Assembly (NCBI GenBank): GCA_964106645.2
Contig: OZ067046.1
DNA from: Podarcis pityusensis
Lineage: Eukaryota
DNA length: 64,000 nt
Reading direction: 5' to 3' (one strand)
Below are positions 10,201-55,060 of this stretch, piece by piece. Each line of letters opens with the position of its first letter. The stretch's first letter is position 1. Position numbers and translations under genes: made by a program. The notes under the pieces were generated by a model, which was not told the DNA's origin, ran no database searches, and was given only the letters and a program-made list of their open reading frames with translations.

Positions 10201-10238
10201 GCTGCAAAGAATATTACATGCTACATGTTCATAAAATA

Positions 10239-13060: not shown

Positions 13061-13321
13061 GAGTGCCAAGAGAGTGAGAAATCTCTTGCTTTGCACAATC
13101 CTCTTTATGGAAGATAATGCATATCAATGTTATCTACCAATCTGTTTGCCAGCTTGTACTTGGACCTCTAGGGAGCAAGATACCCAGTCGCACACACTTC
13201 CCCTCCTCACAATTTTCATATGTCCCACAGTTAGTAGAAAATAAAATATAGTAGGAGCCAGCTTAATGTTTGTGGACCCTGTTTTGACTTTAAAAGGTCA
13301 AATTAGAAGAGACTATGCAAA

Positions 13322-18626: not shown

Positions 18627-20871
18627 CGCTGGATGGCTTTAAAAGATGACTGGACAAATTCATGGAAAGAGATACTGATGGCTCGATAGTCATCTAGTGT
18701 TTCTAAATACCATTTGCTGGAAACCGCAGGAGGGAGAGTGCTCTTATGTTTGTGGGTTTCCCACAGGAATCTGGTTGGACCCTTTGAGAACAGGATGCTT
18801 GACTAGATGGTTCATTGGCCTCATCCACCAGGACTTTTCTTACGTTCTTGAGTGTTCTAGATCATTGTGGCCCTCCCATGGACCTTAGGATGAAGGATGG
18901 GTAAGAAATCTAACAACAAAAAATCACAACAAAATCACATCAATAATTTTTTTGTGATGCTTTATCAATATGTATAGATACGTATGTTTTGGGGAAATAT
19001 TGCACAAAAAGAATCTTGATGCAGTTGTAGGCATGATTGCATAATCATCATCATCATCATCATCATCATCATTAGTTTTCACCAACGTGCATGTGGTTTA
19101 TCTTAAGTTAACATCTGGGTGAAAGATTAGGAAACTTGCTTGAGCCTTCATAAAGCAGCTGGAGAAGGAGGAGAGGAAAGAGGGTGAAGAAAAAGTTGTG
19201 AGTGGAGGGGGATGCTTTTTCAGTCCTTTGGACCCCCTGGGAAATTCAACAAAGCTGCTGTACCTAGAACTGGGTGTGGAGAGTGCTGATGAATGGGACA
19301 CAGCAGCCTAAGGAAGTGCCATACACCTTGGGCCTGCCCACAAAGAGCAAGTCTAGATTAAGAGACTAAAATTATATCTATTGTTTCCAGGAAGTCTTCT
19401 TGCTTTGAGACCTTTGGGGGGTGAACTGAGAGTTTGTTGGACCCTGGGTGAGATCCCAGAGGCTGAGAGGGAGGGAGTGTCAGAAGGAAAATATATTGAT
19501 GCTGATTTATATCTATTGGTAACCTTGTATTAATGTAACATTTTTGTGTGTATCTACTTATTTTTTATATTTTGTTTGTCTCTTGTTGCTTCAGTATATA
19601 TTAAGCAGTATACAAATTAAATAATCAATATCTTACGAGGAATAGATTTTATAATTGTTTCTCTTTTCCCTTAAACCCTTTTCTTTTTTGAAAATATGCA
19701 TCCAAACTACTTCTGTTAGAACATGGAATTATAAATTAGGGAACTAGATCTCTAAAGCATTAGACTCAGAGAATTCTGTATGAAAGGTTAATTCAGAGCT
19801 AAATCCTTGCGGAATCTAAAGCTGAGGCAGAATCTGTCAGGAACAAACTGAAGTAAACCTGTTATCAGCTGCTACTTATAACAAGGTCAGGTTGGGACAT
19901 AAATAGAAAGCAATCTGGCAGATGTTTGGGGAACTCTGAGCTTAAAAACAGAGCAAAAATATTTGCCAGCAAGCTCTGTGTCAGAATTAGAAAATCAAAT
20001 GTAATATTGAGAAACTGAGTATAGCAAGCACAAATTGCAGTAGCTCATGGCGGTATTAAGAATTCTGTCAGGAAAAACAATCCAGAGGTCTTATTCCAAA
20101 ATATACATTCATAAAACTGGGGAGAATGGAGGTAGCTCAGATTCTGGCCTGCTTCACCCACTGGGCCAGGCCTAGTCAGGCATTTGAGCCCCATTCCCAG
20201 TGTGACTCCATTCATGTAAAAGAGGGGACAGCTGAGAGAGTTGGCCTCAATCGTCCTTCAGAAGTTGCAGTGTTGAACTTCTGCAGTGGAGAGCCTTTTC
20301 TATTTGGGTAGACTCCCCACCACCACCACCACCACCCATGTGATCTAGAACCATGGAAGATCAGGAGTCTAAATCACAAGGGGGACGGGCACTAGACAAG
20401 GCTTACCTGCTGCCAAAGTTCAGACCCCAGTGCACGGAGGGTGACAAAGCCAGTAACAGTGACACAACAAAAGAGATAGGGCTAAGAAGCGTATTCCTGT
20501 TCTCACACACCTGCCCGCCATGACTAGAATCACAGGTGGGGAATGCCTGAATAGGACTTCCACCTTCACTGAATCTCTGCCTTCTGCCTGGTTCCAGCAA
20601 GGATCTAGAAGATTCCTTCCTGAGTCTGACTGTGGCCACAGGTGCTACCATGCTCTGCCTGTGACCAGCCAGCTCAAACCCACACCCATATTGTAATACC
20701 CTAACAGATCCTTGGGACTGAAGAAAGATCAAGGTCAGAGCCAAGTGGTGAGCTAAAAGATGAGGAAGAGAAGTCAATTATTTTTCATCCAAGCAGTAGC
20801 TGATTCAATCCCTGGTATCTTCAGGTACAACTGGGAATGTCCCCTGCCTTAAACTCTGTCTGAGACCTATC

Positions 20872-20961
20872 CATAGCTGTCAACTTTCCCCTTTTCTTGT
20901 GGGGAATCCTATTCGGAATAAGGGAATTTCCCTTAAAAAAAGAGAAAAGTTGACAGCTGTG
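20872..20961. mobile_element. hAT-type MITE (90 bp)
   Basis: TIRs CATAGCTGTCAACTTT / AAAGTTGACAGCTGTG. 8-bp TSD GACCTATC at 20864-20871 and 20962-20969. Confidence 0.9.
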
Positions 20962-22794
20962 GACCTATCAATGATCCTACTTAAAAACAAACCCTTTGTT
21001 AGCAAGAAACCACAACTTTGGGGCAAACAAACTTTCTGGAAAATAACTTCCCCATGGACTGGAAGGTACCACTGCTGATTGTGTTAAAATGAAGCCGCAT
21101 CAATGTAAATACGTAATCAGGGATGCATATTGTTTTGAAAGTGAGAACTAAAAAAAGTGCTACCTACCCCAGGAGTTTGGACTTCCAAAAAAAAAAAAAA
21201 AAAAAGGTGTGAAAATGATCCACCACAAACTTCCTTTCCTCAGCATCACAAGACAAGAGTTTAACAAGTGAGACAAATATAGCATGGACTGTGCATACCA
21301 TTCACTTATATTTGTCTCCTCATTCTCAGGGGTCTTTCATGAGAACCTTGCCCAGGCCCCGTGGGAATGAGTGGAGGCTGCCAAGAAGCCGAGCTTGGTG
21401 GGCTGGGCTCATTTAGAACTGAGTTTTATGCTGCAGAGAACTGTAGTATAAAGCAGCCTTTCTTTGTCCTTCCTTTTCATGAGATTTTTTCAAAGGTCAC
21501 CACTGCACAAGTGTCAGTGATAATTTAAGCACCCAAGTTAACTTACGCTGAATGCTGCCTTTTGTTTTCAGGAAAGCTTGTCAGAATGGTTACAGGCATG
21601 TGTGTGCTCCAGGTTATTTCTGAAGCTCCAGCCATACATAACCCAGGAATGCTTCCAATTTTATGTACAGAAAAACGAAATGTCATTTTTTTAAAAAAAG
21701 GGAATGTGTTGTAAAATGATGCACAATTATATGGGCCACAGTTAAGGGCAGACCTTTAAAGATCAGACAGGCAGCTGCAGTGAGCGTGAAGTGCTATTTC
21801 TAGCCCAGATGTAATACAGTGCAGAATTGTTTTCCAGGCTGGAAAAAAGTATTGCATAGTTAACCAGCTTTAATAAAGATAGCACTGTGACAGTTCCCCA
21901 CCCCCACTTCTCATGTCAGAAAAGTACTCCAATGGCTAGGATGGAAAAGGCAGTATGTGGTTGCTGCCACACATCTAGTCAGTCAAGGTCTCTTGGTACT
22001 TGCCCTAGATAAGCAACTCCTCCAAATGAGGTCAAAATGGGTTCAGTCAGGCTTGCAACTAGTTTCTCGCCTGCCAACCTGGGTGGGGAAAGTAAGAATA
22101 GCTTCAGGATGCTCATACAAAGATGCTTTTGTAAAAGATAGCCACCGCTTTCCTTTCAGCCTATTGATACATCACAAATACCCAGTGTCCCTGTCTGTCA
22201 AGGACATATTTCATCTTTGGTTTGGGTTTTGAAGGAACTATTTGTTAACATTTTGTTAGTGTGGATTGCTGAACTGGTGCCTCTCACAGCTACAGCGCCC
22301 TTCCCGAGTTCTTGAGAAGTGAATTCTGTGAGGAAGGGTGGTAGCGTGAGGTGGATTTTGCATGTCTGGAGTGTGGCCCATTGCACAAAGTTAAGAGTCA
22401 CATCTGTTGTTCCTTCTGCTTTTACCTGTGGCCCAACCCACTTTTGCCTCAGAGCACCCCTACTACTGGTACATGGCCCATGAGGAAATATCGCCCCTGG
22501 ACTGGAAAACGTTCGCCACCCAATGGAGAGCAATAGTAGTCCTCTTCAGATGTTATGACTCTTCTCCATGCACAGACAGTAGGTGGCATCAGCCTCTGTC
22601 TACTACCTTCAAGTCAGAAAGAGAACTTCTGAAGAAAGCTTATGTACTTATTGCATTTCATTGCCATCTCCAGGTGTGAGGGGGCCCTGAGTGGTGTGTC
22701 CTCTGCTCAGGCCCCTCCTCTGTCAGTGGGACCATGGCAGGTTCGCCTAGCTGTGGCAGAAGTGTTCTGAGGAGAGCTTGGGTAGCTGTATCTA

Positions 22795-23149
22795 AGGTAA
22801 AAGTAAAGGGACCCCTGACCATTAGGTCCAGTCGTGACCGACTCTGGGTTTGCGGCGCTCATCTCGCTTTATTGACCGAGGGAGCCGGCATACAGCTTCC
22901 AGGTCATGTGGCCAGCATGACTAAGCCGCTTCTGGCGAACCAGAGCAACGTACGGAAACGCCGTTTACCTTCCCGCTGGAACGGTACCTATTTATCTACT
23001 TGCACTTTGATGTGCTTTCGTACTGCTAGGTTGGCAGGAGCAGGGACCGAGCAATGGGAGCTCACCCCATTGCGGGGATTCGAACCACCGACCTTCTGAT
23101 TGGCAAGTCCTAGGCTCTGTGGTTTAACCCACAGCGCCACCCGCGTCCC
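22795..23149 (-). mobile_element. Sauria SINE, full length
   Basis: TSD TAGCTGTATCTA at 22783-22794 and 23151-23162. Confidence 0.95.
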
Positions 23150-26042
23150 ATAGCTGTATCTAGCTACCCCTTAAATTCCTCAAAGCAAGGTTAGGTCGGG
23201 GCATTGTAGGCAATGAAAATGGCAGCTGTCGCCAGCCTCCTGGTGCTACTCAGAGTACCAGGAGAGAGAGAGAAAATATAAAAAGGGGTCCAAGATAGGC
23301 ATGAGCCATGGGTCTTGCCAGGACATCTGGACCCTGGCAGCTGTCTAAGGATTCCAGGAGTTGACTCTCTTGTATACCTTCAACCAACAAAGCAGACTTC
23401 TTCCTAGCTTTTAAGAAAGGACAGGACAGGCTATTTCAAGGTTTATGAATATTGCAGAGTGCAGAAGACACAGAGAAGAGCCTGTAGCAATATGTAATGG
23501 GGGACAGGCCCTCCTCAAGCAGTGACCCTTGGTAGGAGGTGTACAGATGCATCTCTCTCTTTATCCAATGAAATACTGGGTGGTATGCAAACAAGGAACA
23601 TACTTATGTTTGGACACACTGGCATGTTAAATTGTTTGTGGCCTAATGACTTTTGGAGCCTGATTTGCTAGGCTGGCTTACATAAAAATAGCATTATACT
23701 TCCCAAGGAACGTTACTTGAAGTATTTTTATTTCTGTCGGTTACCTGGCAACTTAAGCACAGTATATACAGCCAGACTGCCAGCCAGTTTAAAACGATCA
23801 TAATCCTGAGGGGATTTCAACCCAAATAAAGCAACGTAGCAATGACTTTGCTGAAAGGCATATCCCGTCTTTCCCCCGCATCTCCTGTGTCTGCGCTCTG
23901 AAGGTGTGTCTGAAACAAGGCAGCATCTTGTGAGCACAGCAGCCTGCTCCTGGTCTCAAGGCAACCCTTAAACCCTAAGGAAATAGGTCTGTGAATATAA
24001 GAGCTGCAAATTGTTTAATGCATATATACAGCCAATTTTTGTTGTTGTGGGCTGTAGAGTTTTATGCCTAATGAGCTTATTAGCGCCAGACGTCAGTGCA
24101 TTTGTAGGACACGAACCCAGGATGTACAATTTGGCACCGCCAGCCGGTCCTGAAGCCACTTACTTTCAGGAGGGGATGCTGTGCTTCATAAATGAATGCC
24201 ACAGTGAGCCAGTAAAGAGATGAAATTAAGTCTGCCGTTCCACTCGTCTTGTAAATTGAATTAGTCCATATGTTTTCACAAGCCACGTGGAGACGCATTG
24301 TGTGTGTTTTCTGCTGTTCTCAGTGGCTGTTTAATAGCTCAGAAAAGATAAGTTAATTATGATACTTGGGCGCACATGACATTCCTATGCATTTTGTCAG
24401 CTTTTTGCAAGTAATGGCAAAATATCCGGGAAGGCACAGTCAACAAGGTAAAACCTGCCTTATCTATTGTCATTTTGTCAGAACAAACAAATGGCCAATA
24501 CCACAATCTTATGCATGCTTACTCACAAGTAGGGATGGGGCAGAAATTCAATTCAGATCCCATTTAAAGCTGAATTTATCAAGGTTGTATTTTCCTCAAA
24601 CATAGCAACGATGCATTATACTGGGAGAAATTGCTTGCATAAATGTGTACATTTATCTAAACTGCAGACAAAAATGGGTTTATTGAGGGGGGGAAAATCA
24701 CATTAAAATGCTGAAGAATTTTCAGTTGGTTTTTTTAATTGTTAATCACTACAGAAACATATAGAGCTGAACTTTTAAGATTGGAAAATGGGAAAATAAG
24801 CTCCAGTGTGTCCAACAGTACTTACTCCCAGGAAAGTGTTCTTAAGAACTTTAGGCTAGGAGTAAGCCCTACTGATCATAGTTGGACTTACTACTGAGTA
24901 AATATGCATAGGATGGTATTGTAAAAGCCTCTCATTCATTCTTGTAACCTTAAAAGCATACTTTGATAACTGTGTTCAAGAAAGATCAGGTCTATTTTAG
25001 GATAAAAAGGAATTCTTCTTTGTCTGCCTGGGATGATTTGCCTCTTCACTGAGGGGGAGAAAGCTAGCTAAGAAAATGACAGCTCCATTGATGTAATGTG
25101 CATCTAAAAATATAAATACCAAGTTGAAAATATTTTGTATTTCTTTCAAAGCATAGTAGGAAACCTTGTACTTCAATAGACGTAATACTATGTTAGCAGA
25201 GCTGACCTGAACACATTTGAGTTGGTATTTTATTTATTTTTTTAACAATCTTGAAAAAGGGCTCTGCTATAGTGTTCACTCACTGAAACTAAGGATAACG
25301 GTTCCTAAAAGCTACTTCATTGTCCCTCAGTGACACATCAGCACATAGCTAAGTCTGATTGGATATAAATGCTTCTGATGCTATGAGTGGACAGGATTGC
25401 CCAGCTAACTAGTCCCAGGAAGAAAACTCAGTAATCACTGGGGAGAAACTACACAAAGCAGCAGCGGTAGGGAAATAATTCCAGTAAAGTGATTTGAAAA
25501 ACGTGGACATTCTTCTCAGAATAACAACAACAACAACAACAACAACAATAATAATAATAATAATTTCATACTAAAAATCAAAATGGGCAAATGTTCAGCA
25601 CAGACATTGTGTTCCCATGAGTCCTCTTCAGTTATATACTCAACCAGAATGTTTGTTCTTTTGTTTTGCAAATATTTTCTAGTTCACCATGACTTTAGTT
25701 AAATCTGTCTATCTATTCTATTGTTGCACTTCCGCCTAGATATCTGATATTTCTTAAGGTACAAATAAATTGCATCCAATCCTGTTCAGAAGCTAGCCTT
25801 TCTATTCCCCAGAAAGAAAATGAGCTCACCATAAGGCAGTCACCATGGAATATACATATTGTTGAATAGTACAGATTTTTTTTTCTAGTTTAAAATCAGC
25901 TCAGAACAACATTTACTTTTCCTAGGTGAACAGATTGTCTACTTCCTGCACGGCAGAGTGCAGCACTCACTGACTGGCCTTTAAATTTAGTAGCTGAAGG
26001 GTGAGTGTTTGTGAACATTCCATGAAAATGCATCTTCAAGTA

Positions 26043-26640: not shown

Positions 26641-27665
26641 TAATAGTATGGGTGGAGACTCAGATGCAGTGGGTCCCATGGAGATAAAAGATTTAAACCC
26701 AATCTTCATGTTAGATGCCGCAACATCAGGATGAATTTTCCACAGTATTTTTCTCAGTGAAACATTTGATGGGGGTGGGGAGATGGATCCCAAAGCAGCC
26801 ATTTAGAAGACTTAACAAAATGAATGCAGGGCCTGTCTCCACGATGAACAGATAACCAACATCCTTCTGATAGTGATGCTCTGGATTCAGTTTTCCTGCA
26901 TGGAACAGGAGGATGAACTAAATGGCCTTCAGGAGTCCTTCAGGTGCTATGATTCTAATACCTGTAAATAAAAATGCTCTGCACATTAAAGGAAGGAGGC
27001 AGTACAAAGACATAAAGGACAACTGCAACCTGCAATTGTTCTCTTTTTTTAAAAAAAAAACCAAGCAGTTTTTTTAGAGGATAAACTTGTTAAATAAATA
27101 AAAGGTCACCTGAAAGAATCTTGACTCCTGCCAGTGCTTTGACGGGGGAGTGAACAACAAATGACATCTATGACTGGAGAGACACTTCTGGAATTTTGCC
27201 AGTCCCAAAAATATCGAGATGATTGGTTGACTGCCAAAATATTGTTATGCATGAAATGCCTGCTGTATGCAGGATTGCAGAGCTAATACAGCTCTTAATG
27301 AATGGCAATGAAGACCTTTCCATGGCAGAAAACAGAAGTCTTGCCCCTCTGGTGCTGTCCTTTCTGTTACTGCTGAATTATACAAATTTAATCAAGGGAA
27401 CAAAAGGGGTGGATTCCCCCCCCCCCCGACTGCCAGGTTAACAGTGTGCACTCAAACCAAAATGCACTGTTGCCGGCATGTACAAAATCACCAGCAGGGA
27501 TTCTGCTTTCAAGTCCACGGAATGAGTGGGCAGAAAGATGTCCTAGGCTGCTGCCTTGTTGGTATTCAGACTGATGGATTGTTTTGTGGGTGTATTCCGC
27601 AATATGTCTTTTGATGCAATAACAGTGCATCAGCGATTGATTTAGACTGGACTATCCACACGTTA

Positions 27666-28020
27666 GGGGACGCGGATGGCACTGTGGGTTAAACCACAGA
27701 GCCTAGGACTTGCTGATCAGAAGGTCAGTGGTTCGAATTCCCGTGACAGGGTGAGCTCCCATTCTTCTGTCCCAGCTCTTGCCAACCTAGCAGTTCGAAA
27801 GCACCTCAAAGTGCAAGGAGATCAATAGATACCACTCTGGCAGGAAGGTAAACGGCGTTTCTGTGTGCTGCTCTGGTTCGCCAGAAGTGGCTTAGTCATG
27901 CTGGCCACATGACCTGGAAGCTGTACGCTGGCTCCCTCGGCCAATAAAGCAAGATGAGCGCCACAACCCCAGAGTTGGCCACGACTGGACCTAATGGTCA
28001 GGGGCTCCTTTACCTTTACC
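27666..28020 (+). mobile_element. Sauria SINE, full length
   Basis: TSD TATCCACACGTTA at 27653-27665 and 28021-28033. Confidence 0.95.
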
Positions 28021-28498
28021 TATCCACACGTTATTCTGCGTCATTAGGTGTTTTGTGATGCTCCCCCAATGTGGTTGCATTATTGGTGTCCAGAGGGGCA
28101 CACTAGCGCAGCAGATGCAGGACAAAAAAATAAAATGGAACATTAAAAGTTATAAAAAGTTATAGGATTACAGCAGGAAGCTACAAGATATGCACCAAGT
28201 GGAAATGAAGCAGTATATCTACCCTGAAACTTGGGCAGGCAGGCACAAAAAATATTGAAAACAATTTCACATGTGCTACCCTGATGCCATCAATGAGCAG
28301 GAATCATCATGAACATACAGTAAAAAGGGCATCAGGAGGCACTCTTACTTAACTGTTGTAGTGCCTGCCCATTCTCTTCCAGTACAGAAGCCAAGGCTTT
28401 GCAATCTAAAAGCTTACTTAGCTGGTATTTGTCAATGCTTTTCTCAATTTCACATACCAAATGGTTGTGATTTTTCTACCATTTCCTGACCTAGTTTT

Positions 28499-28654
28499 AG
28501 TTACAGATGGGTAGCCGTGTTGGTCTGCCATAGTCGGAAAAAAAAAAAAAGAAAAGAAAAAAAAAAGAAGAAGAAGTGTGCATGCACACGAAAGCTTATA
28601 CCAAGAACTAACTTAGTTGGTCTTTAAGGTGCTACAGGAAGGAATTTTTTTATT
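28499..28654. mobile_element. Penelope-like element remnant (internally deleted)
   Basis: Homologous to 15427-15657. 13-bp direct repeat CTGACCTAGTTTT at 28486-28498 and 28655-28667. The hammerhead core has lost its CT. Confidence 0.8.
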
Positions 28655-28796
28655 CTGACCTAGTTTTGTTTTCAGTGAAGAATCCTAGCAGGTCAGGCAT
28701 CCCAGCAGACTACAGCTGCTAGCATAGCATATCCATAGTACCCTTTTCTTTTTTCTTCTCCTCTGCACGCCCCCCCCCCCGAATCCTGCAGGTTCA

Positions 28797-29216: not shown

Positions 29217-29908
29217 GTAGGAACCCAGGAAGCTGTCCTATACTGAGTCAGACTACTACTAGTGGTGGCTGGACTGGTGATTGGGAGTGGCCGCTGAGAC
29301 CACATAACACCAGTCCTGAAAGGCCTTCATTGGCTTCCAGTATGTTTCTGAGCACAATTCAAAGGGTTGGTGCTGACCTTTAAAGCCCTAAACAGCCTCG
29401 GCCCAGTATACCTGAAGGAGCGTCTCTACCCCCATCGTTCTGCCCAGACACTGAGGTCCAGCTCCAAGGGCCTTCTGGCAGTTCCCTCGCTGCGAGAAGC
29501 CAAGTTACAGGGAACCAGGCAGAGGGCCTTCTTGGTAGTGGCACCCGCCCTGTGGAAAACCATCCCACCAGATGTCAAAGAGAACAACAACTACCAGACT
29601 TTTAGAAGACATCTGAAGGCAGCCCTGTTTAGGGAAGTTTTTAATGTTTGATGTTTTATTGTGTTTTTAATATTCTGTTGGAAGATGCCCAGAGTGGCTG
29701 GGGGGGCCCAGCCAGCTGGGTAGGGTATAAGTAATAAATTTTATTTTTTTAATTATTATTATTACTCAGTGTTGTTTACACTGACTGGCAGCAGCTTTTC
29801 ATGATTTCAAACAGCTGTCTCTCCCAGTCTTATTTGGAGATGCCAGGGATTGAACTCTGAACCTTCTGCACCTAAGGCAGATGCTTTCATACTGAGCTAC
29901 TGCCCTTC
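29217..29908 (-). mobile_element. tRNA-derived SINE with CR1-like tail (Squam2-like), split by L2
   Basis: On the minus strand, GAAGGGCAGTAGCTCAGT head and a B-box-like TTCAATCCC. The tail resumes at 29217-29260. Confidence 0.65.
29262..29765 (+). mobile_element. L2 LINE 3' end
   Basis: HITPVLKGLHWLP..LVLTFKALNSLGPVYLKERL..RAFLVVAPALW..FRRHLKAALF, followed by a (TTA)n tail. Confidence 0.92.
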
Positions 29909-29909: not shown

Positions 29910-30560
29910 TCCAGGGTCTGCTTAGTTACCCCTAATGAAACAGAGTATGACCAGTTACCAAAGCAATCTGCTCCACTGTCAAAAAACCTCATGACATTAG
30001 AGGGTTCTTCCTAATGTTTAATCTAAATGCTTCTTCTTTCAATTTTAACCTGTTTGGTTGGCTGTTCCTCCCTGGATCCACAGAAATCAAGTTTTCTCTC
30101 CATCTACTCTTGGACAGCTTTCCAAATGTTTGAAGATAGTTTGCATATCACTGCCTTATTCATCTTTTGCCCAGGCTATGTTGTTTAGTTGTGTCTGACT
30201 CTTAGTGACCCCATGGACCAGAGCACGCCAGGCACTCCTGTCTTGATTGTCCATGGAGTTTTCTTGGCAGGGATACTGGAGTGGCTTGCCGGTTCCTGCT
30301 CCAGGTAGATCATGTTTGGTCAAAACTCTCCACTATGACCTGTCCATCTTGCGTGGTCCTGCATGGCATAGCTCATAGCTTCTATGAGTTATTCAAGCCC
30401 CTCCGCCACAGCAAGGCAGTGATCCATGAAGGGGCTAAACATACCCAATTCCTTCAACCTTTCCTCACAGGATTTCTCCTCCAGACCCCTCACCTTATGC
30501 TTCTTAAACCATGGGGCTCAGAGCTGGACACAGCATGCCAAGTGAAAGGCTCTCATGAAT
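29910..30560 (-). mobile_element. Old CR1 fragment hosting the Bov-A-like insertion
   Basis: ..TTCTTCCTAATGTTTAATCTAAAT.. and CCAGGCTA|AACATACCCAATTCCTTCAACC are typical antisense CR1 sequence. Confidence 0.6.
30179..30432 (-). mobile_element. BovB internal-deletion derivative (5' end joined to 3' end; Bov-A-like)
   Basis: 30179-30243 matches the BovB 3' end seen at 17.57-17.64 kb. The remainder resembles the BovB 5' UTR (GGCAAGCCACTCCAGTATCCCTGCCAAGAAAACTCCATGGAC). GGCTA repeat on both sides. Confidence 0.75.
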
Positions 30561-35500: not shown

Positions 35501-36230
35501 AATTATGTTTCAGAGCGAACAGCTGTAGTTAAGCTATAAAGATTTTAAACTTGAGTCTCATTTCAACCAAAATAGAAACTGACTTTTTAATAGACTGTGC
35601 TCAAAGGTGTAAGAGGTGAGGAAATCTAGCAGTCGGGGGAATGCAAATAGTTTGGGTTGCCAGCTTGTAACAACAGACATTCACAGCCGGTTTGCAGAAA
35701 TACTGGATGTGCTAATGGGCAATAGTGAGGGGAGAATGAAGGGGGGGGGGATGATGGTAGAAGCACCCTCTACATGTTGTTATTTGCTCTTGTGCTCAAT
35801 TCTTGCTTGAGGGTCCCCACAGGCATTGGGGAGCATTGTGAGAACAGGATGTTGGACTAAATGACCCATTGGCGTGATCCAGCAGGCTTTTCTTGTGTGA
35901 TTACAGTTTATAGGAGAACTCTTAGGAGCCTATCAGAGGAGACTGACAAGAAAGAATCGAGGGACTCTCTGAATGATGAGAAATGTATGACTGTTGACTA
36001 TGGGGGATGCAGGACTGCTAGGCTTCAGCTTTGACTTTTGGGATGGGGAAAAATACAGGTAGGGTGTTTTTGCCCTCACTTTGCCCTCAAAAAACAATAT
36101 CCCATGGAGCAAACACCACCCTCAACTTGTTGTTATCTACAGTTGACAGGTGGGCTCTGGGGATGCTAAGAGTGTCTTAGCTGTGTGTGCTAATTCACAA
36201 ATTGCAAAATGGTTGCATGTTTAGACCTTT

Positions 36231-36995
36231 TAACCTCCCCCTTAAATAAATTCAGACAAGACTCTAATTTTGGTTTGGTTTTTGGCAAAATTTATTGATT
36301 ACATCAAGTGAGTGGTTGCATAGTCTCTGGTTCGGCTAGCTCCCTGCACCATGGCAGGTAGCACTGACCCAGGGCACCAGCATAGGTCAGCCTAGGGTGA
36401 ACACCTGGATAGGCAGAAAGCCATGGTCAGGCTAGTCCACCACCCAGATGTCCCCCTGGACTCAGGCACAGGCACAACCCCCTCTCAGGGTTGACCAAAC
36501 CATTGACTCCCTGGATTCCTTTAATTTAATACCCTTCTCATAGGGGTGGCAAGAGTGTTCCCCCATCCCTATCACCTGAACCAGAGCCTATCCGCAACCT
36601 TACAAGTTGTGATGATTTGCTATGCAGCAGGCAAAACCCAAATGGCAACAGCCAATCAGCCAAGTGGGGAAAATTCCTGCCGTGGCCCTGTCTCAACAAT
36701 AGCCAACACACGATGGCATAGCAAGGTCAAGTGCCAGCCCTAAATATAGGGAGAGGGGGGTGGGTGTTCCGAATAAATGTGCCGAAAGAGGAAGCTCAGG
36801 GTCATGTGCATGGGCATATATAGGTCCCTTGATTTGTTTGGCTAGCGTCCCATTGGCCTGATTAAACCCAGCATCGAGGGACCTACCAATAGGGTGTTGT
36901 GGCTATCCAATCATACCCACCTACAACATAGGGTGTTGGTTGTCAGGTCGCACCGCAACACGTGCCCTCTTTGAGGGAGGACGCAATATGGCCTG
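36231..36995 (-). mobile_element. Solo terminal-repeat/LTR-like unit (possibly Ngaro/DIRS-type)
   Basis: The minus strand has CCAAT boxes, TATATA (~36816-36821), a pyrimidine initiator and CAATAAA (~36291-36297). It shares blocks with 52.0-52.75 kb. The family assignment is tentative. Confidence 0.6.
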
Positions 36996-37019
36996 GCTTT
37001 AGCATTCCCCAAACTGTAA

Positions 37020-37545
37020 TACATGCTGCCATTGGAAACTATTCAGAAAACTCCCATTGGTTCAAAATGCAGGCAAAGATGCTCAGTGGCTCCCAGGTCA
37101 TTTCAAGGAACAATTCAAAATGGTTGTTTTAATACAGTATTTGAAAGTCTCAGTAGCCTGTCTCCAGTATATCTCTGGATGCATCTTCCCCATATAGACC
37201 ACCTATCTTCTCTATCTACTGTTTGGATGGTGGAGAGAAGCAGGGAACCTGATCAGTGGTGGCACCCTTTCAGAGGAATTCCCTTCTCAGGCTAACTCCC
37301 ACCCAACTTTTTCAGAAAATTGTGAAATTCTTTTTATTTCAGCAGGCCCTCAGAAGGCTAGGAATTATTTTGAATTGGAGTGGCCTCTTTTATTGTCTTA
37401 GGTGCTCTTTTGAAATGGCTGGCATTTTACAACACTCTGATCTTAGGTTTGAGAGTTTTTAATGAATATTAGATTGTTGTTGCCCTTATTTGTGTTATGT
37501 TGTATACTGCCTCGAGTTAATTGGGTGGAATAGAAGTTCTTAATA
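37020..37545 (+). mobile_element. Degraded L2 3' fragment
   Basis: ..LETIQK..SKC.. followed by TCAGTGGTGGCACC..GGAATTCCCT, resembling L2 ORF2 ends. Confidence 0.55.
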
Positions 37546-38137: not shown

Positions 38138-38318
38138 TAGCAATCTGCATTATACTGAGTAAGACCATTGGTCTGTCTAGTATTGTCTATATATTGACTG
38201 GCAACAACTCTTCGGGAATTCAGAAACTGACCTCTCCCAGCCCTACCTACGGATGTTGAGGATTGAAACTAGAACCTTTGGCATGCAAACCAGATGCTCC
38301 AACACTGAGCTATGCCCC
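38138..38318 (-). mobile_element. tRNA-derived SINE (Squam2-like), degraded
   Basis: Homologous to 29217-29908 and 63715-63885. Confidence 0.65.
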
Positions 38319-40575: not shown

Positions 40576-41331
40576 TGTCAGAGCTGCTTCCAGATCCTAG
40601 CTCACAGAGGATCACGCTAGCCAGCGATCATTAAAATAAAGTCTTTATTGAGTTACAGTTTCCATTCTCAATCTGCTGCGTGCAACTCTACGTCTCATGG
40701 TTAGATCGGCGAAGCTCCGTCTGAGTCTCCGCCCCTTGTACACCAACTTAATATCCTAGCCCTGCTCCACCTTTTCCGCCTGACTGTTCTTCTCTGGGTC
40801 CCTCTGCCCCCCGGGGTCTCTTCCTTCCGGGATTCTTCTGACGCCGACCCCCCGGACCCTCCTGTCTCCTTGCGCCGGGCTTTAGGACCTGGCTCCCTTT
40901 CCGGGCTGCCTACTGCGCCACCTTCCTGTGCATTTGAACTTGGCGCGCGCGCCAAACCTTCCACCTTCCGTCTGACCGTTTCTTCGCTCCCCGATGGAGG
41001 TGTGGCCACTCCTGACTCGTGCCCTCCCCCCTGTTGTGAGCTGCCAGCGCTTGATCCCTGGCGCCCTTCCTCTTCCCTGCTCTCTGGCGGTGACGCTGGT
41101 CCCGATTTCCAACTGCTCCCCTCTGAGTCCCCTCTGGCTCTATCTTCCTGGGGTGTCCCCCTAGGCTCCCCCCTTGCCCTGGCCACTGGTGCTCCTTTCT
41201 GTGAATCTTCTGATTCACTGGAAAGACTCGGAGATCTCGGGTCGTCGTCATCACTCATCTTTTCTTCTGCCTCCTCCCCCTCGCTCTCTGTTTCCTCCCT
41301 TGCCCTTGCCTCTGCTCCTGAACCCCTGACA
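40576..41331 (-). mobile_element. Solo LTR (Gypsy-like), 756 bp
   Basis: TGTCAG...CTGACA termini with a perfect 5-bp TSD CTAGT (40571-40575 / 41332-41336). AATAAA on the minus strand near 40645. CpG-rich, suggesting a young insertion. Confidence 0.9.
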
Positions 41332-41806
41332 CTAGTGAATAGTTATGATACAGCCCATAGCTCTCCCTTCCTTTCATAATTAGAACTGCAGGAGTTACTT
41401 GGAGCCACATGTGAGACCAAGTGAAACTCACTTTAGCTGGAATTTCATTAGAGTCCTGAAATTTAATTCTGGATAGAAAACCAACTTTGAATGATCCTGA
41501 GCCAAGTTATGGCTTAGGGTGAAATCCACAAGAAACTTAATTATTCTGGCTCATTGTTGTCCAGCAAAGCGGGGGAGGGATACTCGTGCCAGTACATTTT
41601 CCTTTATGGCTAATTCTGCCTTTGGCTCTGTGGTCACAGAGACAGGATGGGCTCTTCAGAATGGCAGAGGAGAGGAGTATTCAAGTCCGGTGATTAAGAA
41701 CCATTGGTGTTCAATATCCCACTTCCCCTTGGCACAAGCTTCATAGGCCCGCATTGTAAGCTAGAAAGGAGGAGAATAGTTGGAACAAATGCTGAGTGAC
41801 CAGGAA

Positions 41807-42157
41807 GGTAAAAAAGGGACCCCTGACCATTAGGTCCAGTTGTGACCGACTCTGGGGTTGCGGCGCTCATCTCGCTTTATTGGCCAAGGGAGCCGGCGTA
41901 CAGCTTCTGGGTCATGTGGCCAGCATGACTAAGCTGCTTCTGGCGAACCAGAGCAGCGCACGGAAACGCTGTTTACCTTCCAGCTGGAGCGGTACCTATT
42001 TATCTACTTGCACTTTGATGTGCTTTCGAACTGCTAGGTTGGCAGGAGCAGGGACCGAGCAATGGGAGCTCACCCCGTCACAGGGATTCGAACTGCCAAC
42101 CTTCTGATTGGCAAGTCCTAGGCTCTGTGGTTTAACCCACAGCGCCACCCACATCCC
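41807..42157 (-). mobile_element. Sauria SINE, full length
   Basis: TSD TGACCAGGAA at 41797-41806 and 42158-42167. Confidence 0.95.
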
Positions 42158-42839
42158 TGACCAGGAAAGTAGATTGTCTCTTTTTGGAGATATGAACACA
42201 CACACACACACACACACATACACACTTACTTCAAGTGAACCTCCTTTTATTTAGAATAGCACCATCCCAATGACCAGCATAAGCAGTAAAACGAATACCA
42301 CCTCATCATCCTGGTATTATGGCACAGCTATGCAACTGTAAAGGCAGGTGATGGTATTTGTCTACTTTTTTTCATGGCATATCCCACAACTGTCCGGAAA
42401 AACTGGGACATCTCATTTTTTTCCTGCAAGAGAACGGTGGCCATTTGGGTTGCTGTGATTTTGCAGTGAAAAATGCACTTGGAGGGGGGTCGTATTCTTT
42501 CATAGTGCCCCCAAATGCCCATTTTTGAGTGCCATGCCCCCAGTGTGAAAATGGTCTCTTTGCGCTCATGATATAAAACTGGAATATGGCATGCGGGAAG
42601 ATGGCGTCCCAGATTTTGGTTTCAAAGTGTTCAGCTAAAGACGTTGTTTCTAAACATTGGTCCAGAACTTCTGAAAACCATGAACAACTAGTGGGTCAAA
42701 TGATCTTTGCGTGCAGCACCCTAAAATTCATGTGGTGCCACCACTACCTGATTCTGTCATGATTCTTAACTGCATCTTGCACATCATTCAAGCAAAAACT
42801 GCCAGTGATTACATCTTAAATGTGATGATCAACAGCTGA

Positions 42840-44390: not shown

Positions 44391-44810
44391 TTCTGGTTCA
44401 GCAGGTTATCATGCTCTTTGTACAGAGGGGGTGCCACAGTAGTGCAGAAAGTCAGCAAACCAACACAATGTGATATTTTTCTGAAGCTCGAGCCCATCTG
44501 GAAGTCAATCTCTTTGATGTGGTAGCACTTTCTCCTGGCCTCAGATGTATAAGGACTGTAGGGTGATTGGTTAGGGAAAGGAGCTCCAGGCATGTTCCAA
44601 GGAACTGTTCTCAGCATGCTTATGTCACTGCTCACAGGACTGCCTCTGCCAGGCCTCTTGTCTCAGGATCTTTGGCTGGATTGAGAAGGACTCAGATCAA
44701 GATGATTCCCATGTGATCATAAAAATCTCTAAGTAGCTTCCATCATCCTCAGAGGCTGAGGGTGACTCCTCTGCAGCCTCTTCTGCAGGAACATGTGACT
44801 GAAAAATAGT

Positions 44811-45306
44811 TTGTTGTTGTTTAGTCGTTTAATCGTGTCCGACACTTCGTGACCCTATGGACCAGAGCACGCAGGGCACGCCTGTCTTCCACTGCCTCCC
44901 GCAGTTTAGTCAAACTCATGCTGGTAGCTTCAAGGACACTGTCCAGCCATCTCGTCCTCTGTCGTCCCCTTCTCCTTGTGCCCTCCATCTTTCCCAATAT
45001 CGGGGTCTTTTCCAGGGAGTCTTCTCTTCTCATGAGGTGGCCAAAGTTCTGGAGCCTCAGCTTCACGATCTGTCCTTCCAGTGAGCACTCAGGGCTGATT
45101 TCCTTCAGAATGGATAGATTTGATCTTCTTGCAATCCATAGGACTCTCCAGAGTCTCCTCCAGCACCATAATTCAAAAGCATCAATTCTTCGGCGATCAG
45201 CCTTCTTTATGGTTCAGCTCTCACTTCCATACATCACTACTGGGAGAACCATAGCTTTAACTATACGGACCTTTGTTGGCAAGGTGATGTCTCTTGCTTT
45301 TTAAGA
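44811..45306 (-). mobile_element. BovB LINE 3' fragment
   Basis: Closely similar to 17560-18057. Confidence 0.96.
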
Positions 45307-45686
45307 TGGTGCTTTAAAGATGGGTGCTTTAAAGATGGCTTACAGTTCTTGTAAGGGCTGGGACCAGTGCAGCCCTGCCAGCCTTCTGAAACCCTTAACT
45401 GATTCTTGTCCTTGGCTGACATGCCTTCCTTAACTCAGTCAGCAGGGCAAACTGGGAGCTGCCTTGCCTTGCCATGCCCTAATCATTTCAATTTCACTTG
45501 TAGGGCTCCAGCAAAGCATGACAGTGTTGAAACTTTCTAGGGTGAAACTCTGCTGAACTTTGGTTCAAATCAAGTCAAGTCGGTTCATTTCAGTGAGTTC
45601 TTTCAACATGATGCTACATTGAACAATGATGATAATACTCTGAAACATCAGTATTCCCCCCCCCCCCGTTATGAGCTGCCCAATTG

Positions 45687-45989
45687 ACACGGGTGGTGCT
45701 GTGGTCTAAACCACTGAGCCTCTTGGGCTTGCTGATCAGAAGGTCGGCGGTTCAAATCCCCGCGACGGGGTGAGCTCCCGTTGCTCGGTCCCTGCTCCTG
45801 CCAACCTAGCAGTTTGAAAGCATGTCAAAGTGCAAGTAGATAAATAGGTACTGCTCCGGCGGGAAGGTAAACAGCGTTTCTGTGCACTGCTCTAGTTCGC
45901 CAGAAAGCTCCCTCGGCCAATAAAGCGAGATGAGCGCCGCAACCCCAGAGTTGGCCACAACTGGACCTAGTGGTCAGGGGTACCTTTAC
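45687..45989 (+). mobile_element. Sauria SINE with internal deletion
   Basis: Lacks the GCGGCTTAGTCATG..GTACGC segment found in the other copies. Confidence 0.92.
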
Positions 45990-46566
45990 TAATATTGGAA
46001 ATAATCTATAGAAATCCCCACTGAAATCTGGTTAAGTAATATTTGGAATGTAGTTCTATGGGAATACCTAACTCACCACAGAAGGGTAATTAAAGGCACT
46101 TGAAGGATAGACATTTTGGTGTGACTTAGGTTCCTTCCTTTTCCTTTATAAACGAGACAAAATATACTTTTATTCCACCCTCAACACAAGAATCTCTGTG
46201 GATACTTGAACTGATAATACATAAATAAACATATTGCTTATGTACTGTGTACTGCATATGAAACTTAATAAGAATGTACTACTGGACAAGTAACTGTAGT
46301 TATGCTGTTCTTGAATTTACATGAAAAACAATAATAAAAAATGGGGGGGGGCACATCAAGGTCTTTGTTTCTTTTTCCTGCAGAAATGATAGTAAGAAAT
46401 TAATTCAAAGTTAACACCACAGTTCTGGTGATTTGGTATTTTGACTACTTTAATATTGCAACTTCCTGGGAAAAAACACAACCCTTTTCTATGAATCTGA
46501 GGAAGATTGTTGGATTTTTGCACTTCAGTTTTTCTCAAGACCAATCCAATTGCATTGAGACAACTA

Positions 46567-48579: not shown

Positions 48580-51500
48580 AATATCAAACAAATTAATCAG
48601 AGGGGCTGCAGAAGTGTTCTTTACAACCCTCTGCTCATTTCACCCTCCACTCCTAACATACAAGCACAAAACATTCCCACACTGCAGCCTGGACAGCTAC
48701 TCCCCTTCCTGCCAAGTTGGGGCTCTGCCTGCCTCGGGGCATAGCTTGGAGAGTAGGACGTGAGTGAAACAGACGCCCAAAATATTATCTTTCAGGAGAC
48801 AACTTGATGTTCTGACACTACTAGTTTTTGGCAGAAAATAATATATTTAATTCCATCCTTCTGTTTATTTTTTTAAGTTGTTTTTTTTTTAAAACCTGTG
48901 TTGTTTTGGCAGTTAAGAATCTGACAGCCTTAAAACCAGAGATTAAAAGAAAGGGTTGGGTGTGCTTTTGTTGAGGGCGAACTGTCAACTGTGGAACGTC
49001 TTCCTGACATTATAAAGTTTCAATATTGCCTTGAGATATTTAATGGGAAGCAATCCATAAATGGAAATAAGCACACAGGATTGCAGGCAGAAGATGGCCT
49101 GTTGGAGTTCAACGTCTTCCATGTTAGAAAGATAATGTTTTGGATCCCTAGAAACACGAGCAAGAGGAAAATAGTTGGTGGTGATATGCTCCAAAAACAT
49201 GTTCAAGAAAGATTTGATGCAGGGCTGTAAAAGGGTTAGGATTTCCAAAAGTTTTCCCATGAGCAGAAGGTACGTTTGATCTAACCCATTAACTTCATTA
49301 AAATTCCAGTGGAGATCTTCAGAAATCCTGAATGGGCATTTCAGGAAATTGTTTTAGGAGTTACAGAATTGCATTGGTGAAGTAAAATTTTCTTTCTTGT
49401 AGATCAAGTTTTGGAACTAAACAAACTATCTGCTAGTTGTATCTTAATCAAAGCTGCTTTGATGATAAAATAGTTTATTTGATCTTCAAGCATCCTTCTA
49501 GTGAACTTCTTGAGCACACAATGCAGATTTCTCAAAAACGGTTCAGCCTTTTAAATTTTATTAGTCATACCCCTGCTTTATGATTTAGCTCCGACAACCC
49601 ATTTTCCTTCATTTCCCTTAGTGATGCCACATGATCCTAACTTCTTCTTAAATTGTTGTTGATTTTCTTCTTGCATACAATCATTAACTGTAGCATTTGG
49701 ACTCCTCCCCCCTGTAACAATCAGATTACCAATAAACTGAAATCTTAAAGACAGCGGAGAGTAAATTCTGTAATTTTAAAAAATTGATAATGCCCTGGCA
49801 TCTTTCCATTCTGCAACAGGTGACTATTGGGGGTCTCTTCTACCAAAGCAAGCTTAGACTTAATTACCTCAATCTGATACCAAATCGTTTTAAGGATTTG
49901 GGATCCTGTTAGGTTGGTGACTGGTTATTATTCCGCATTTTCTCTAGCTGCTGGTGTACAACTGAATTTCAGCAAAGAAATAGTGAAGTCTAAGCTGATT
50001 AACAGCCCAGTAATAAGAATCTAGCTTTTTTCAGTTGCCTTGAGTAGAAGTAAACCCTTCATCTCAACTGGGTTATGAATTTGACTGTTAGGTATTAGAA
50101 ATAAAATAAACCAGTTGCTGCAATGTTTATATCTGTCAGTCACACTATTAATAATTTGAATGAATACCTTACATTTGCAAATAACAATGGTGTCATTTCT
50201 GCTAAGGGTCAGTGGGAGTTTTGCTGCTAACGTGACACAAGAGTAAGGAGTAAATTCAGTTTTTACCTCTCAGGCACTGACATGAAACATGCTCCTTATA
50301 AGGATGGTATTCTTCTGGCCACTTATATGTCACAGGATGTTATTTTCATAGAGTTGGTAGTAGCAAGTGTTAACGTAAATCCCATAATTGACAGGTTAGT
50401 GGTTTGTGGAGGCAGTGACTTCCCCAGAGGGGATTTCTTGATTAATTGTGATGGCAGATTTAAGGCAGACTGGTTGCCAGTGGGAGGCAGCTGATTACAC
50501 AGTGTCTAATTACAGACTTTCCACTTTCCAGGGCAATGTAGTGTCATGCGTAAACCTGCCAAAATTCTTTCAAGACAGGAAATGCAGGGGAAGCTAGGCT
50601 GACCAAAAAGAAAGACACTGCTAGCAAGGCAAATCTTTGATGGATCATGTATAAACAAGAAGCAGGGACAGTGGGAGACAGTGAGCTCATTGACAACATT
50701 GCGAGGCAGTCCGTGCAGTTGGGGTAGAACCAAAAGCACCAAAGGTCAAAATCTGAGATATACTTCAGCTATGGGTAAGTCCCTTTCTCTCCCTCTCTCA
50801 GATTGATTTCTGTACCTGAAAAACAGGAATATGGGGCAATTCTCAAATGCTGTTAACATAAAAAAATACATGCCAATGCTCATACTGTATAGTACAAAAA
50901 AATGGGATCTGCAACAAATTGTCCGTGTGGTGTGTTCCTGTCTATTGCTGCAGTTGGTCAGCCTGACCCTACAGAAGACTTGATTCCATTTCCTTATCTG
51001 CCATATTTTCCATTTTCCCTCCCCACAGCCAATCAGCTCCTTGGTCAGTCCTCATTGAGTTCTTTTAGAGTTCTTCCCACTCTGGTTTTATTTCTTTTCA
51101 AAATTGCAATGCTACAATCCTTGTTGTTGCCCCAAACCTCCTGATAACCCCCTCTTGTGCATGTGTAAGCCATGGCATCTCACCTGAGCATCAGAAATTA
51201 GACAAAATGACTCCATTGCATGCCAAAGTGCAAACAGCCTTCTGGGTTATAAATGATATATCCTGTGTAATTTGTAGACTTAATGGGTCTCCTTCATTGA
51301 GAAGGACAGCTGAAGGATATATTGTTCCATCATGACTGATCTTCCTCTATCTATAGTTCACAAACAGCCACAGGGATACATGAGAGGAAACACTCTCAGT
51401 TCAAAATAGGTGATGGTAAGGTCCAATGCTCTGCCTTGTGAAATGAGGGTTTACCTAAGAACATGTCCCCCAAGATTCTCTGTAATGTACAGGGTCTCTG

Positions 51501-51984: not shown

Positions 51985-52750
51985 CACCACCCCATTTTCC
52001 ACAGCAATAAACCAGGCAGAACACAGTGCTTTTTGGATCAAATAAGGCCACAACTTTATTGATTGCAGATGTTAGAGGTTTGGCATAGGTATTGGATACA
52101 GCCATTGACTTCAAGCCCACCTGCCGGAAGTATACCCAGGGTCAATCCAACAGCAGGGGAGTCCTATGACTTATATCAAGTAGGAGTACCCCACAGGATG
52201 GCTGTCTTGATGAGTGCTGTGGCCCTAGCCCCCATCTAGGACAAAAGCAACTCCTCCCATATCTCTTTAGTGGGATATCCTTTTCTCATAGGGACAGGCA
52301 GAGCCACAACCTCCCCTCCAGCCAAGACTAAGGCTTATCCAATGCTTAAACCACCAAAGTTGTGATGACCGCTGTGAGGTAGACAAAAACACCGGAGTGG
52401 AACAAATTTGCTGGGTGGATAAATTTCTACCCAGCCCCGAATACGGTGACCAATGAAGTCCACAGCAAGGCCAAGCAAGCATAATTAAAAGCTGAAAACA
52501 TAGGCAGGGCTCAGGGCTGTCTGGCTTTTAAGCCCAAGGAGTGGGCCCAAGGGAAGCCTGAATGCCCATTGGGCCTGCTTCTGAGGAGAACCTGTCTCCA
52601 GGCCCACCCATGACTGGGCAATTTGCAGGCAGGCCTGAATCCAATGCCCTGGCCATTGACGCAAGTTGTTAGGTCCAACGTTCAGTGCCAGCACCAGAAG
52701 TGAACTATGGCGGCTGCGCCAGGCTACAACACCGCCTGCCCCCTAAGTGG
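51985..52750 (-). mobile_element. Second solo terminal-repeat/LTR-like unit (possibly Ngaro/DIRS-type), divergent relative of the 36.2 kb element
   Basis: Minus-strand CAATAAAGTTGTGGCC near 52050 and a CTTAAAAG TATA-like motif at ~52525-52532. Blocks TTCTCATAGGG and AAGTTGTGATGA are shared with 36.5-36.6 kb. Confidence 0.55.
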
Positions 52751-53990: not shown

Positions 53991-54129
53991 AAGTCTTGAT
54001 TTCATATTCTTAAAGATATGCACTTATTTATTTAGCCTTTCACCCACCTTGTCCCCCAAGGTCAATGTGGACTGAACATCAGAAAAACCAGATACACAAC
54101 GATGTGGTGATTGCTAAAAGTCACCTGCT

Positions 54130-54698
54130 GCAAATCCACCCCTTTCCTTTGCATCAGTTAATATCTTAAATTTTATTCTGGGCTTCTTGCCCTGCCAGAC
54201 AAATCTAGAGATGTCTCTCTGCCACTTCTTGAAGCAATCCATTTTGTCCACAATTTGCAATGTTTGAAACAAAAATAACATTCTAGGCAATACATTCATT
54301 TTTATCGCAGCAATACGACCCAGTAGTGAAAGCTTTAAATGTGACCAAATTTCTAAATCTTTTTTCACTTCAGCCCAGCATTTTTCATAGTTGTCTTTAA
54401 ATAAATTCCCATTTTTTGCTGTCATATTAATCCCCAGGTATTTCACTTTCTTAACCACTGTTAAACCTGTTTCATTCTGAAACCTCTCTTTCTCAATCAG
54501 TGTTAAGTTTTTCTTTAAAACCTTGGTTTTTAACTTATTCAGTTTAAATACAGCAACCTGACCAAATTCTTGAATCAGTTCTAGAACCCTTTTGGTACTA
54601 GATTCTGGCTCCTGTAACGTCAGTACTAAGTCATCTGCAAATGCTCTCAATTTGTACTGTTTAGCTCCGACTTGTATACCTTTAACCAACTGGTCCCT
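54130..54698 (-). CDS. L1 ORF2 fragment (RT FADD region), inverted segment
   Basis: RAFADDLVL, KYLGI, GRIAAIKMNVLPR, ending in ERGGFA. Confidence 0.9.
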
Positions 54699-55054
54699 TG
54701 TGGGAGTCATAAAGCCACGGTAAAGGCTTGTAATATTGCAGGGTGCCCCCTGACCTCGGCTGACCAGCACTCTGAGCTTTACAATGTATTGGAATGTATT
54801 GCAGTTGTGTTTCCTCTGGGCAGTGATTGACCTTATATGGTGAAGGGGGCAATAATAGCCTTGACCGGATGAGGTAACGTGAGACATTGGAAAACAGCCA
54901 TGCGGCTGGAGAGAGAGAAAGGAGAGTAATAAAAGTAGCTGCAGGAGGAGAGGGGAGTTCGAAGGGAGCTGCTCCTACCATCATGAAAATATTGCTGGCT
55001 CTCTGTGTCATAATTTTATGCTAAACTTCGCCATTTGTACGGCTGGCTCCGACA
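54699..55054. mobile_element. Solo LTR (ERV-like), 356 bp, nested in L1
   Basis: TGTGGGAGTCA...TGGCTCCGACA imperfect inverted termini (9/11) with a 6-bp TSD GTCCCT (54693-54698 / 55055-55060). Removing it restores ..NMIRRDQLVKG.. Confidence 0.9.
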
Positions 55055-55060
55055 GTCCCT

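Follow-up and report, generated by a model that had tools for sequence, protein, structure and literature searches.

A larger predicted RNA fold shared by two divergent retroelement terminal repeats, with a testable link to the poly(A) signal

Two divergent repeat elements on the minus strand of this locus were proposed in an initial annotation to share nested stems at the start of their transcripts, which raises the question of whether such a structure is real, how far it extends and what it might do for the element. The window, the whole stretch of 64,000 nucleotides analysed here, is repeat-rich, non-coding, vertebrate-type DNA of ~42% G+C containing RTE- and L1-like reverse transcriptases. 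Fragments of an RTE-type LINE, which we take to be of the RTE/BovB family, lie at 17571-18638, 44810-45311, 9068-9260 and 30180-30244, with an RVT_1 match in the longest. An L1-like element at 54114-57004 has reverse transcriptase frames (54114-55885, minus strand) opposing its C-terminal frame (55838-57004, plus strand), and from this frame order its 5' part is inverted. A decayed tRNA-like sequence at 29835-29906 (minus strand, 30.9 bits), the sole Rfam match above threshold in the window, is probably a SINE head and has a weak relative at 38195-38317. Self-inverted, MITE-like hairpin repeats were seen at 15467-15656 (relative at 28493-28657), 8918-9004 and 20870-20963. A canonical solo LTR at 40576-41331 (minus strand), with TGTCA...TGACA ends, a perfect 5-bp target duplication and AATAAA near its 3' end, was used as a control; its 213-codon open frame (40701-41342) is rich in acidic residues and serine and has no Pfam match. 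A SINE-like repeat of ~350 bp, which along with the RTE fragments suggests a squamate host, is present in eight copies, 77-93% alike:

5575-5954, 10226-10608, 13319-13683, 22794-23157: copies of the SINE-like repeat
27652-28021, 41801-42158, 45686-46006, 57433-57797: remaining copies of the SINE-like repeat

The two elements of interest were delimited as follows.

36213..36986, minus strand: unit A, a solo terminal repeat of a high-copy retroelement, 774 bp, with ends TTGCG...TGCAA
51960..52664, minus strand: unit B, a divergent homologue of A with the same end motifs, 705 bp, its 5' end (52664) placed by analogy with A

Units A and B are homologous. Their local alignment score is 194.5, compared to 70.8 ± 9.6 in shuffles, with 0 of 300 shuffles reaching 194.5, and of 4160 pairs of window tiles one reaches the A/B score (presumably A/B itself), the next best scoring 138.5. 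The aligned region extends from the promoter as far as the common 3' end, where the final eight bases are identical. Single-sequence nhmmer did not link A to B, and neither nhmmer (with the single copies and both alignments) nor motif scans gave a third copy in the 64,000-nt window. Unit A is a high-copy repeat, with 2464, 3071, 5725 and 151 public contigs aligned to it in four runs and low-agreement loose ends of contigs at 36213 and 36982, near its edges. Contig depth is maximal at 36582-36680 in all four runs, a weak sign of a core common to most relatives. Searches elsewhere returned 0 matches in viral contigs with three motif patterns, 2 motif matches in metagenome contigs, both bacterial chance matches, and, in prokaryote genomes, 17 matches at chance level with one pattern and 0 with another.

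Two further features of the contigs were seen. First, loose ends at 36579-36595 mark additional relatives that match the core up to a 12-mer and then diverge, one of them continuing in B-like sequence, which argues that more families carry the same core. Second, at 36929-37080, contigs of X1 and X12 continue past the edge of unit A into unique flanking sequence, and those of X2 span both flanks, so that the insertion of unit A seems common to three organism codes.

Both units carry motifs of transcription start and 3'-end formation in the same order.

36794..36856, minus strand: likely promoter of A, with CCAAT at 36852-56, TATA at 36817-22 and CCCTGAGC, common with B, at 36794-801
52509..52572, minus strand: likely promoter of B, with CCAAT at 52568-72, TTAAAA at 52526-31 and CCCTGAGC at 52509-16
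36279..36296, minus strand: poly(A) hexamer of A (36291-96) and CCAAAAA (36279-85), read from the sequence
52030..52060, minus strand: poly(A) hexamer of B (52055-60), partner strand of helix LR1 (52048-58) and likely cleavage site CCAAAAA (52030-36)

CCAAT, TATA and the shared CCCTGAGC lie within the first third of each unit and AATAAA ~80-100 nt from its end. The order of the motifs makes a promoter function of both sets likely, and transcription would run from this CCAAT/TATA promoter along the minus strand; CCAAAAA, with its ~20 nt spacing, is the likely cleavage site. The stems had been placed just after a TATA-like motif, but the motif 25 nt upstream in A is not the positionally shared one: the TATA common to A and B by position lies at 36817-36822 and 52526-52531, 98 and 63 nt before the stem.

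The stems of the initial annotation form the first domain of the fold.

36617..36724, minus strand: domain I of A, with outer stem P1 (36716-24/36617-25) and a variable arm, P2
36626..36681, minus strand: inner part of domain I of A, with inner stem P3 (36676-81/36626-31), U-rich internal loop (36670-75/36632-36), upper stem and RAUU hairpin (36650-61)
52369..52468, minus strand: domain I of B, with P1 (52461-68/52369-76) and P3 (52426-32/52377-83)
52384..52425, minus strand: inner part of domain I of B, with U-rich loop (52418-25/52384-89) and RAUU hairpin (52401-12)

All stem coordinates originally given proved exact. The outer stem has 9 Watson-Crick pairs in A and 8 pairs in B, two of them G-U, with one A-U swapped for G-C; the inner stems were also as described, with one further G-U possible in each, and AAUUU/UUUUG does adjoin the inner stem in both copies. 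Over the 18 pairs of P1, P3 and the small RAUU-loop hairpin, 13 letters differ between A and B and 0 pairs are broken; random change left these pairs unbroken in 22 of 200,000 trials, a figure that overstates the case, the helices having been picked with both copies in view.

The sequence motifs reported beside the stems were less constant than first thought. The third base of the supposedly invariant 12-mer, and one base of the likewise invariant 11-mer CCCUAUGAGAA, is another letter in most relatives of A, and the fourth U of UUUUG is C in about half of them (91% by depth in run X15), leaving three U. The GGAUARGC motif is probably a misalignment: by homology of the 3' partner, UAGGC of A corresponds to UAAGC of B, ten bases further upstream. 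Nor did the span first marked show extra stability over shuffles (z 0.25 and 0.08); the structure runs ~250 nt past those coordinates, and the stems are, in the predicted fold, the first quarter only. Domain I folded alone scores on both strands, with z of -1.9 and -3.5 on the minus strand and -2.5 and -4.0 on the plus strand. The pairing probability of P1 in A is 0.06-0.33 or 0.73-0.92, according to which span is folded, while that of P3 in B is ~0, this stem costing 11 kcal/mol relative to a competing hairpin; the automatic A/B alignment misaligns the inner stem. A pseudoknot between the U-rich loop and GGAUA was considered and dropped, being possible in B and finding no support in A.

The predicted fold measures ~450 nt in total, with nested long-range helices (LR1 to LR3) closing a ~330-nt domain downstream of P1/P3.

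36604..36612, minus strand: LR1 5' strand in A (UCACAACUU), its partner after the hexamer absent in copy A and present in relatives
52355..52365, minus strand: LR1 5' strand in B, 11 contiguous pairs with 52048-52058
36314..36599, minus strand: domain II of A, with LR2 (36596-99/36314-17) and LR3 (36578-90/36321-33, 12 of 13 pairs)
~36540-72, 36515-30, 36458-510, 36394-457, 36363-91, 36339-62, minus strand: hairpins enclosed in domain II of A
52077..52352, minus strand: domain II of B, with LR2 (52349-52/52077-80) and LR3 (52336-48/52086-98, 11 of 13 pairs)
52290-317, 52259-78, minus strand: hairpins of domain II of B, the remaining interior not alignable to A

The strand UCACAACUU is the complement of AAAGUUGUGG, which overlaps the poly(A) hexamer. 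In B, LR1 has a mean pairing probability of 0.74-0.88 and covers only 3-4 of the 6 hexamer bases, the last three of which are unpaired with probability 0.36, 0.18 and 0.02. Among 385 random window 371-mers, with hexamer overlap not required, at least 11 contiguous pairs were found in 4 and an equal duplex energy in 16. The LR1 partner in relatives of A, seen in loose ends at 36291 (15 records in X2, 15 in X12 and 2 in X15, three runs), keeps the same spacing to CCAAAAA as in B. LR1 is without variation, and hence without covariation, and the four pairs of LR2 are identical in A and B. LR3 forms 12 of its 13 pairs in A and 11 in B, with 4 changed on both sides. Its register was set by homology of the 3' strand; slid registers give at most 8 and 7 pairs, and an equally good helix turned up in 0 of 385 and 2 of 381 random 330-mers.

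Only two full copies, A and B, could be aligned, by hand and with no proper covariation statistic; of their 48 aligned pairs, 27 are the same, 10 are changed on both sides, 5 on one side and 6 are broken. For the 4 pairs broken in copy A, the other letter listed among relatives would pair. Most of the domain II interior could not be aligned between the two copies. On the automatic A/B alignment, RNAalifold recovers P1, the RAUU hairpin and a local AACU/GGUU hairpin, a competitor of LR1 and LR2, and misses LR1-LR3. A second GUUGUG in domain II (52300-52310 and 36473-36479) could pair with the 12-mer; the predicted folds place it in local helices.

A span that begins at the stems and ends beyond the poly(A) signal has a z of -2.87 in A and -1.87 in B; for the domain closed by the long-range helices it is -3.46 and -2.79 on the minus strand, compared to -1.5 and -1.6 on the plus strand. 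The promoter side gave 0.36 and -0.90 on the minus strand and -0.96 and -2.72 on the plus strand, and the control LTR -1.4 and 0.3. Because of this strand bias and the G-U pairs, the RNA is read as minus-strand, in the direction from TATA to AATAAA.

Evidence from relatives, which consists of public contigs aligned to copy A only, was scored against the fold predicted from copy A alone. The best 40 of 206 listed differences comprise 25 in the folded part, 11 on the promoter side and 4 in the flanks. Among the 25, 7 gain or strengthen a pair, 5 are kept as G-U, 1 breaks a pair and 12 are unpaired, whereas random placement would give 1.4 gains and 8.7 breaks (P ~0.0002 and ~0.00005). No simulation out of 220 with a drifting unstructured ancestor reached the observed pair-keeping. 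Scored on the plus-strand fold, the differences gave 7 breaks and 3 gains, and on the promoter side 9 of 11 were unpaired, 1 was kept and 1 was a break (P=0.11). Folding four different spans, each with domain II in it, left the result intact (1-3 breaks or none). For domain I alone, its 8 differences gave no significant result (1 gain, 1 break, 2 kept and 4 unpaired; P=0.22), and P1 and P3 contain none of the best 40 of 206 listed differences.

On the predicted folds and these comparisons, we consider it highly probable that the structure is real and has been selected as RNA, with a stronger case for domain II than for the inner stem first described. What holds of the proposed conserved cis-acting RNA is thus a strand-specific structure in a terminal repeat, supported by homology, pair-keeping and minus-strand stability. 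The linear motifs, in turn, lose their role as single-stranded signals, being predicted 5' strands of long-range helices, one of which would pair with the poly(A) signal.

What kind of element carries this fold? The termini of A and B are TTG...CAA, one base beyond TG...CA on both sides, and relatives of A match to 36213, one base past CA. An integrase-type solo LTR has a TG...CA terminal inverted repeat and a target-site duplication of 4-6 bp, whereas A and B have TTGCG...TGCAA; the control LTR in the same window combines TG...CA ends with a perfect target duplication, and A and B lack a clean version of both. No target-site duplication was found in B, whose 5' end is placed by analogy, and 4 of 5 bases match in A. 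Ngaro/PAT-like elements are not known to make a target-site duplication, and TTG...CAA ends without a clear one fit a tyrosine-recombinase element. A recombinase or RNase H domain was found in 0 of 58 open reading frames scanned, as expected for a solo unit, and the same scan gave no coding frame with a Pfam match inside A or B. No end-to-start joint is present among 15 of 20 contig joints. One contig of 2526 nt, a single record, joins unit A at 36731 after 2357 unmatched bases, the sole hint of an internal border. The parent was somewhat more probably than not a Ngaro/PAT-like element, an integrase-type LTR element being less likely.

A retroelement whose ends are duplicated has to pass over its first poly(A) signal, and its intronless RNA needs protection. 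Our best reading of the fold, held tentatively and at somewhat short of even confidence, is that of a 3'-end control module: the transcribed part of the repeat would fold into a conserved two-domain RNA that controls the 3' end of the transcript. LR1 would cover half of the poly(A) hexamer from 300 nt away and so mask the upstream copy of the signal, as would be needed in either layout, whether in the R region of a 5' LTR or in the inner repeat of an A1-ORFs-B1A2B2 arrangement; in the open state, the local AACU/GGUU hairpin would replace LR1. Cleavage would occur at CCAAAAA, ~12 nt past the LR1 3' strand. LR1 starts three to four bases after P1; because it adjoins P1 and cleavage would lie ~12 nt past it, the tail would start out from the base of the P1/P3 stack, which carries the U-rich loop. 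This loop would then probably bind the poly(A) tail as ENE elements do, a short U.A-U triple helix in AAUUU/UUUYG slowing deadenylation of the intronless RNA. Of this, the analysis shows the homology, the repeat nature of the units, the complementarity of UCACAACUU to the hexamer region, the pair-keeping differences and the strand bias. In a wider form, which we regard as improbable, A and B would represent an undescribed class of ~450-nt RNA modules in the terminal repeats of reptile tyrosine-recombinase (Ngaro-type) retrotransposons, in which a single long-range helix would pick between two identical poly(A) sites and also dock the 3' end at a U-rich clamp, linking RNA stability with read-through and the onset of reverse transcription.

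The long-range helices could also serve replication, a possibility to which we give less credence. They would join both ends of the full-length RNA, with the 5' strands in one repeat and the 3' strands in the other, and make the 3' end available to the reverse transcriptase, allowing self-priming or template transfer, with domain I as a binding site for reverse transcriptase or Gag. The predicted helices do set the 3' end beside domain I; the TTG...CAA ends without clear target duplication fit a tyrosine-recombinase element by the rule given above, and the single 2526-nt record joining unit A at 36731 points the same way. Excerpts of PMC7192593 give the primer of DIRS-order elements as not known, and stem-loop priming is postulated in excerpts of PMC3601003. 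However, nothing specific to priming was found, the 15 of 20 contig joints hold no end-to-start joint and the 58 reading frames no recombinase or RNase H domain, and a replication signal alone leaves the pairing of the most constant helix with the hexamer unexplained.

The loop itself allows another interpretation: domain I would serve export or packaging by binding a protein, much as a constitutive transport element does, the protein recognising AAUUU/UUUCG through its non-canonical pairs and the long-range helices doing no more than insulate the domains. The stems on either side covary around retained loop letters, as is usual where a protein binds, and the C in the 3' run suits a non-triplex loop better than an ENE. 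Against this, Rfam gave 0 matches to export elements and the pairing with the poly(A) signal is unaccounted for, and we judge this role distinctly improbable.

Still less probable is an explanation by inherited sequence and DNA-level signals (a CCAAT-like box inside a hairpin of A, the promoter and poly(A) motifs), with the stems due to chance or to neutral template-switch palindromes. It would account for the near-zero z of the span first marked, the disfavoured P3 of B, helices chosen by eye and a domain I that folds equally well on the plus strand (z -2.5, -4.0), but would leave aside 1 break where 8.7 are expected, 0 of 220 simulations, a strand asymmetry with G-U pairs, 10 of 48 pairs changed on both sides and the fact that B retains the hairpin without the CCAAT box. 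Finally, a self-cleaving ribozyme or IRES, raised by the initial annotation and prompted by a large multi-branched predicted fold near the transcript end and by the ribozymes that retroelements carry in known cases, is very improbable, as no such Rfam family occurs among matches up to E=10, a hammerhead core scan for CUGANGA came up empty on the transcribed strands of both units, the conserved motifs already serve as predicted helix strands, and the units contain no Pfam-matching frame.

In agreement with the original view that this is no recognised motif, an Rfam search gave no family reaching threshold in A or B. The H/ACA snoRNA SNORA48, at 22.6 bits in A against a gathering score of 50 and without a match in B, was rejected, as were other weak matches below threshold. 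The literature searched, including the available parts of PMC9210276, PMC6681497, PMC3783388, PMC4157794 and PMC4350176, holds no description of the motif or of an RNA structure in such repeats; Tycowski 2016, Goodwin and Poulter 2004, Dfam and Repbase lay outside its scope. The predicted fold of A and B appears to be a real structured RNA, larger than first reported, with a putative function and a testable link to the poly(A) signal. It specifies exact base pairs, and the family offers thousands of natural copies. Were the loop an ENE, poly(A) triplex elements would extend to a land vertebrate with a new, long-range positioning of the tail; should neither the 3'-end role nor the ENE likeness hold, a well-supported structured repeat of modest interest remains.

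Among known systems, A and B resemble the solo LTRs of Metaviridae and endogenous retroviruses in TATA, length and solo occurrence, and in AATAAA followed by a GT-rich stretch (PMC3601003, in part). Solo AB repeats of Ngaro elements are also on record (PMC8547959, in part); like A and B, these are isolated promoter-plus-poly(A) units resembling solo LTRs and are without integrase-type TG...CA ends (PMC8547959 and PMC9210276, both in part). The units differ from them in length, at 705-774 bp compared to 236+152 bp in Xenopus DIRS-53_XT, and the split-repeat layout and coding regions of Ngaro were not seen around A and B. The available parts of the same two papers describe no RNA structure for Ngaro repeats.

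A repeat that places the poly(A) signal twice in the RNA requires the upstream copy to be ignored (PMC12789967, in part), and in HIV-1 a hairpin over AAUAAA represses the 5' poly(A) site (PMC2645353 and PMC12789967, in part). LR1, as predicted, would resemble this polyA hairpin in pairing over AAUAAA in a repeat at both RNA ends. The HIV-1 hairpin is local, whereas the LR1 partner lies ~300 nt upstream; LR1 covers the 3' half of the hexamer only, and repression by LR1 is our proposal.

The AAUUU/UUUUG loop resembles, with an imperfect fit, the poly(A)-binding loop of ENEs. According to excerpts of PMC7583470, PMC13541005 and PMC12501189, transposon RNAs are stabilised by U-rich internal loops that adjoin G-C pairs and take up poly(A) in a triple helix. 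Transposable-element ENEs (Tycowski et al. 2016, as reviewed in parts of PMC7583470 and PMC13541005) are noted within LTRs, both 5' and 3', and in a single fish retrovirus (same reviews), and are known mostly from plant and fungal transposons beside that retrovirus (PMC7583470, in part); in the ENE of the Evade retrotransposon, the flanking G-C pairs are essential (PMC12501189, in part). Like these, A and B place a U-rich internal loop, bounded by short helices, within a retroelement repeat and upstream of a poly(A) signal. The ENE-type layout is present in both, with the lower stem disfavoured in B. Beside the loop, A has two G-C pairs below, after an AA/G step, and three C-G pairs above, and in B the first lower pair is A-U. 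With 3-4 U per side, and often C in the 3' run among relatives of A, the U runs fall short of a stack of five triples as in KSHV PAN (PMC7583470 and PMC13541005, in part), and each copy has one loop where a double-domain ENE has two U-rich loops in series. A descriptor of the ENE-like loop, composed after the loop had been seen, matched only A and B on the minus strand of the window, compared to 0.5-1.9 matches per shuffled strand; on the plus strand it gave one unrelated match (50219-50264) without any other motif. The loop lies 337 nt (A) and 325 nt (B) upstream of AAUAAA, a gap that the predicted long-range helices bridge. Despite its likeness to both, we do not file the A/B module as an ENE or a polyA hairpin because it would form neither a five-U loop, nor a double domain, nor a local hairpin. 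It is set apart from ENEs by the AA/G step below the U runs, the placement on a three-way junction, a putative triplex whose loop is tied to the hexamer by predicted long-range helices, and a reptile-like host.
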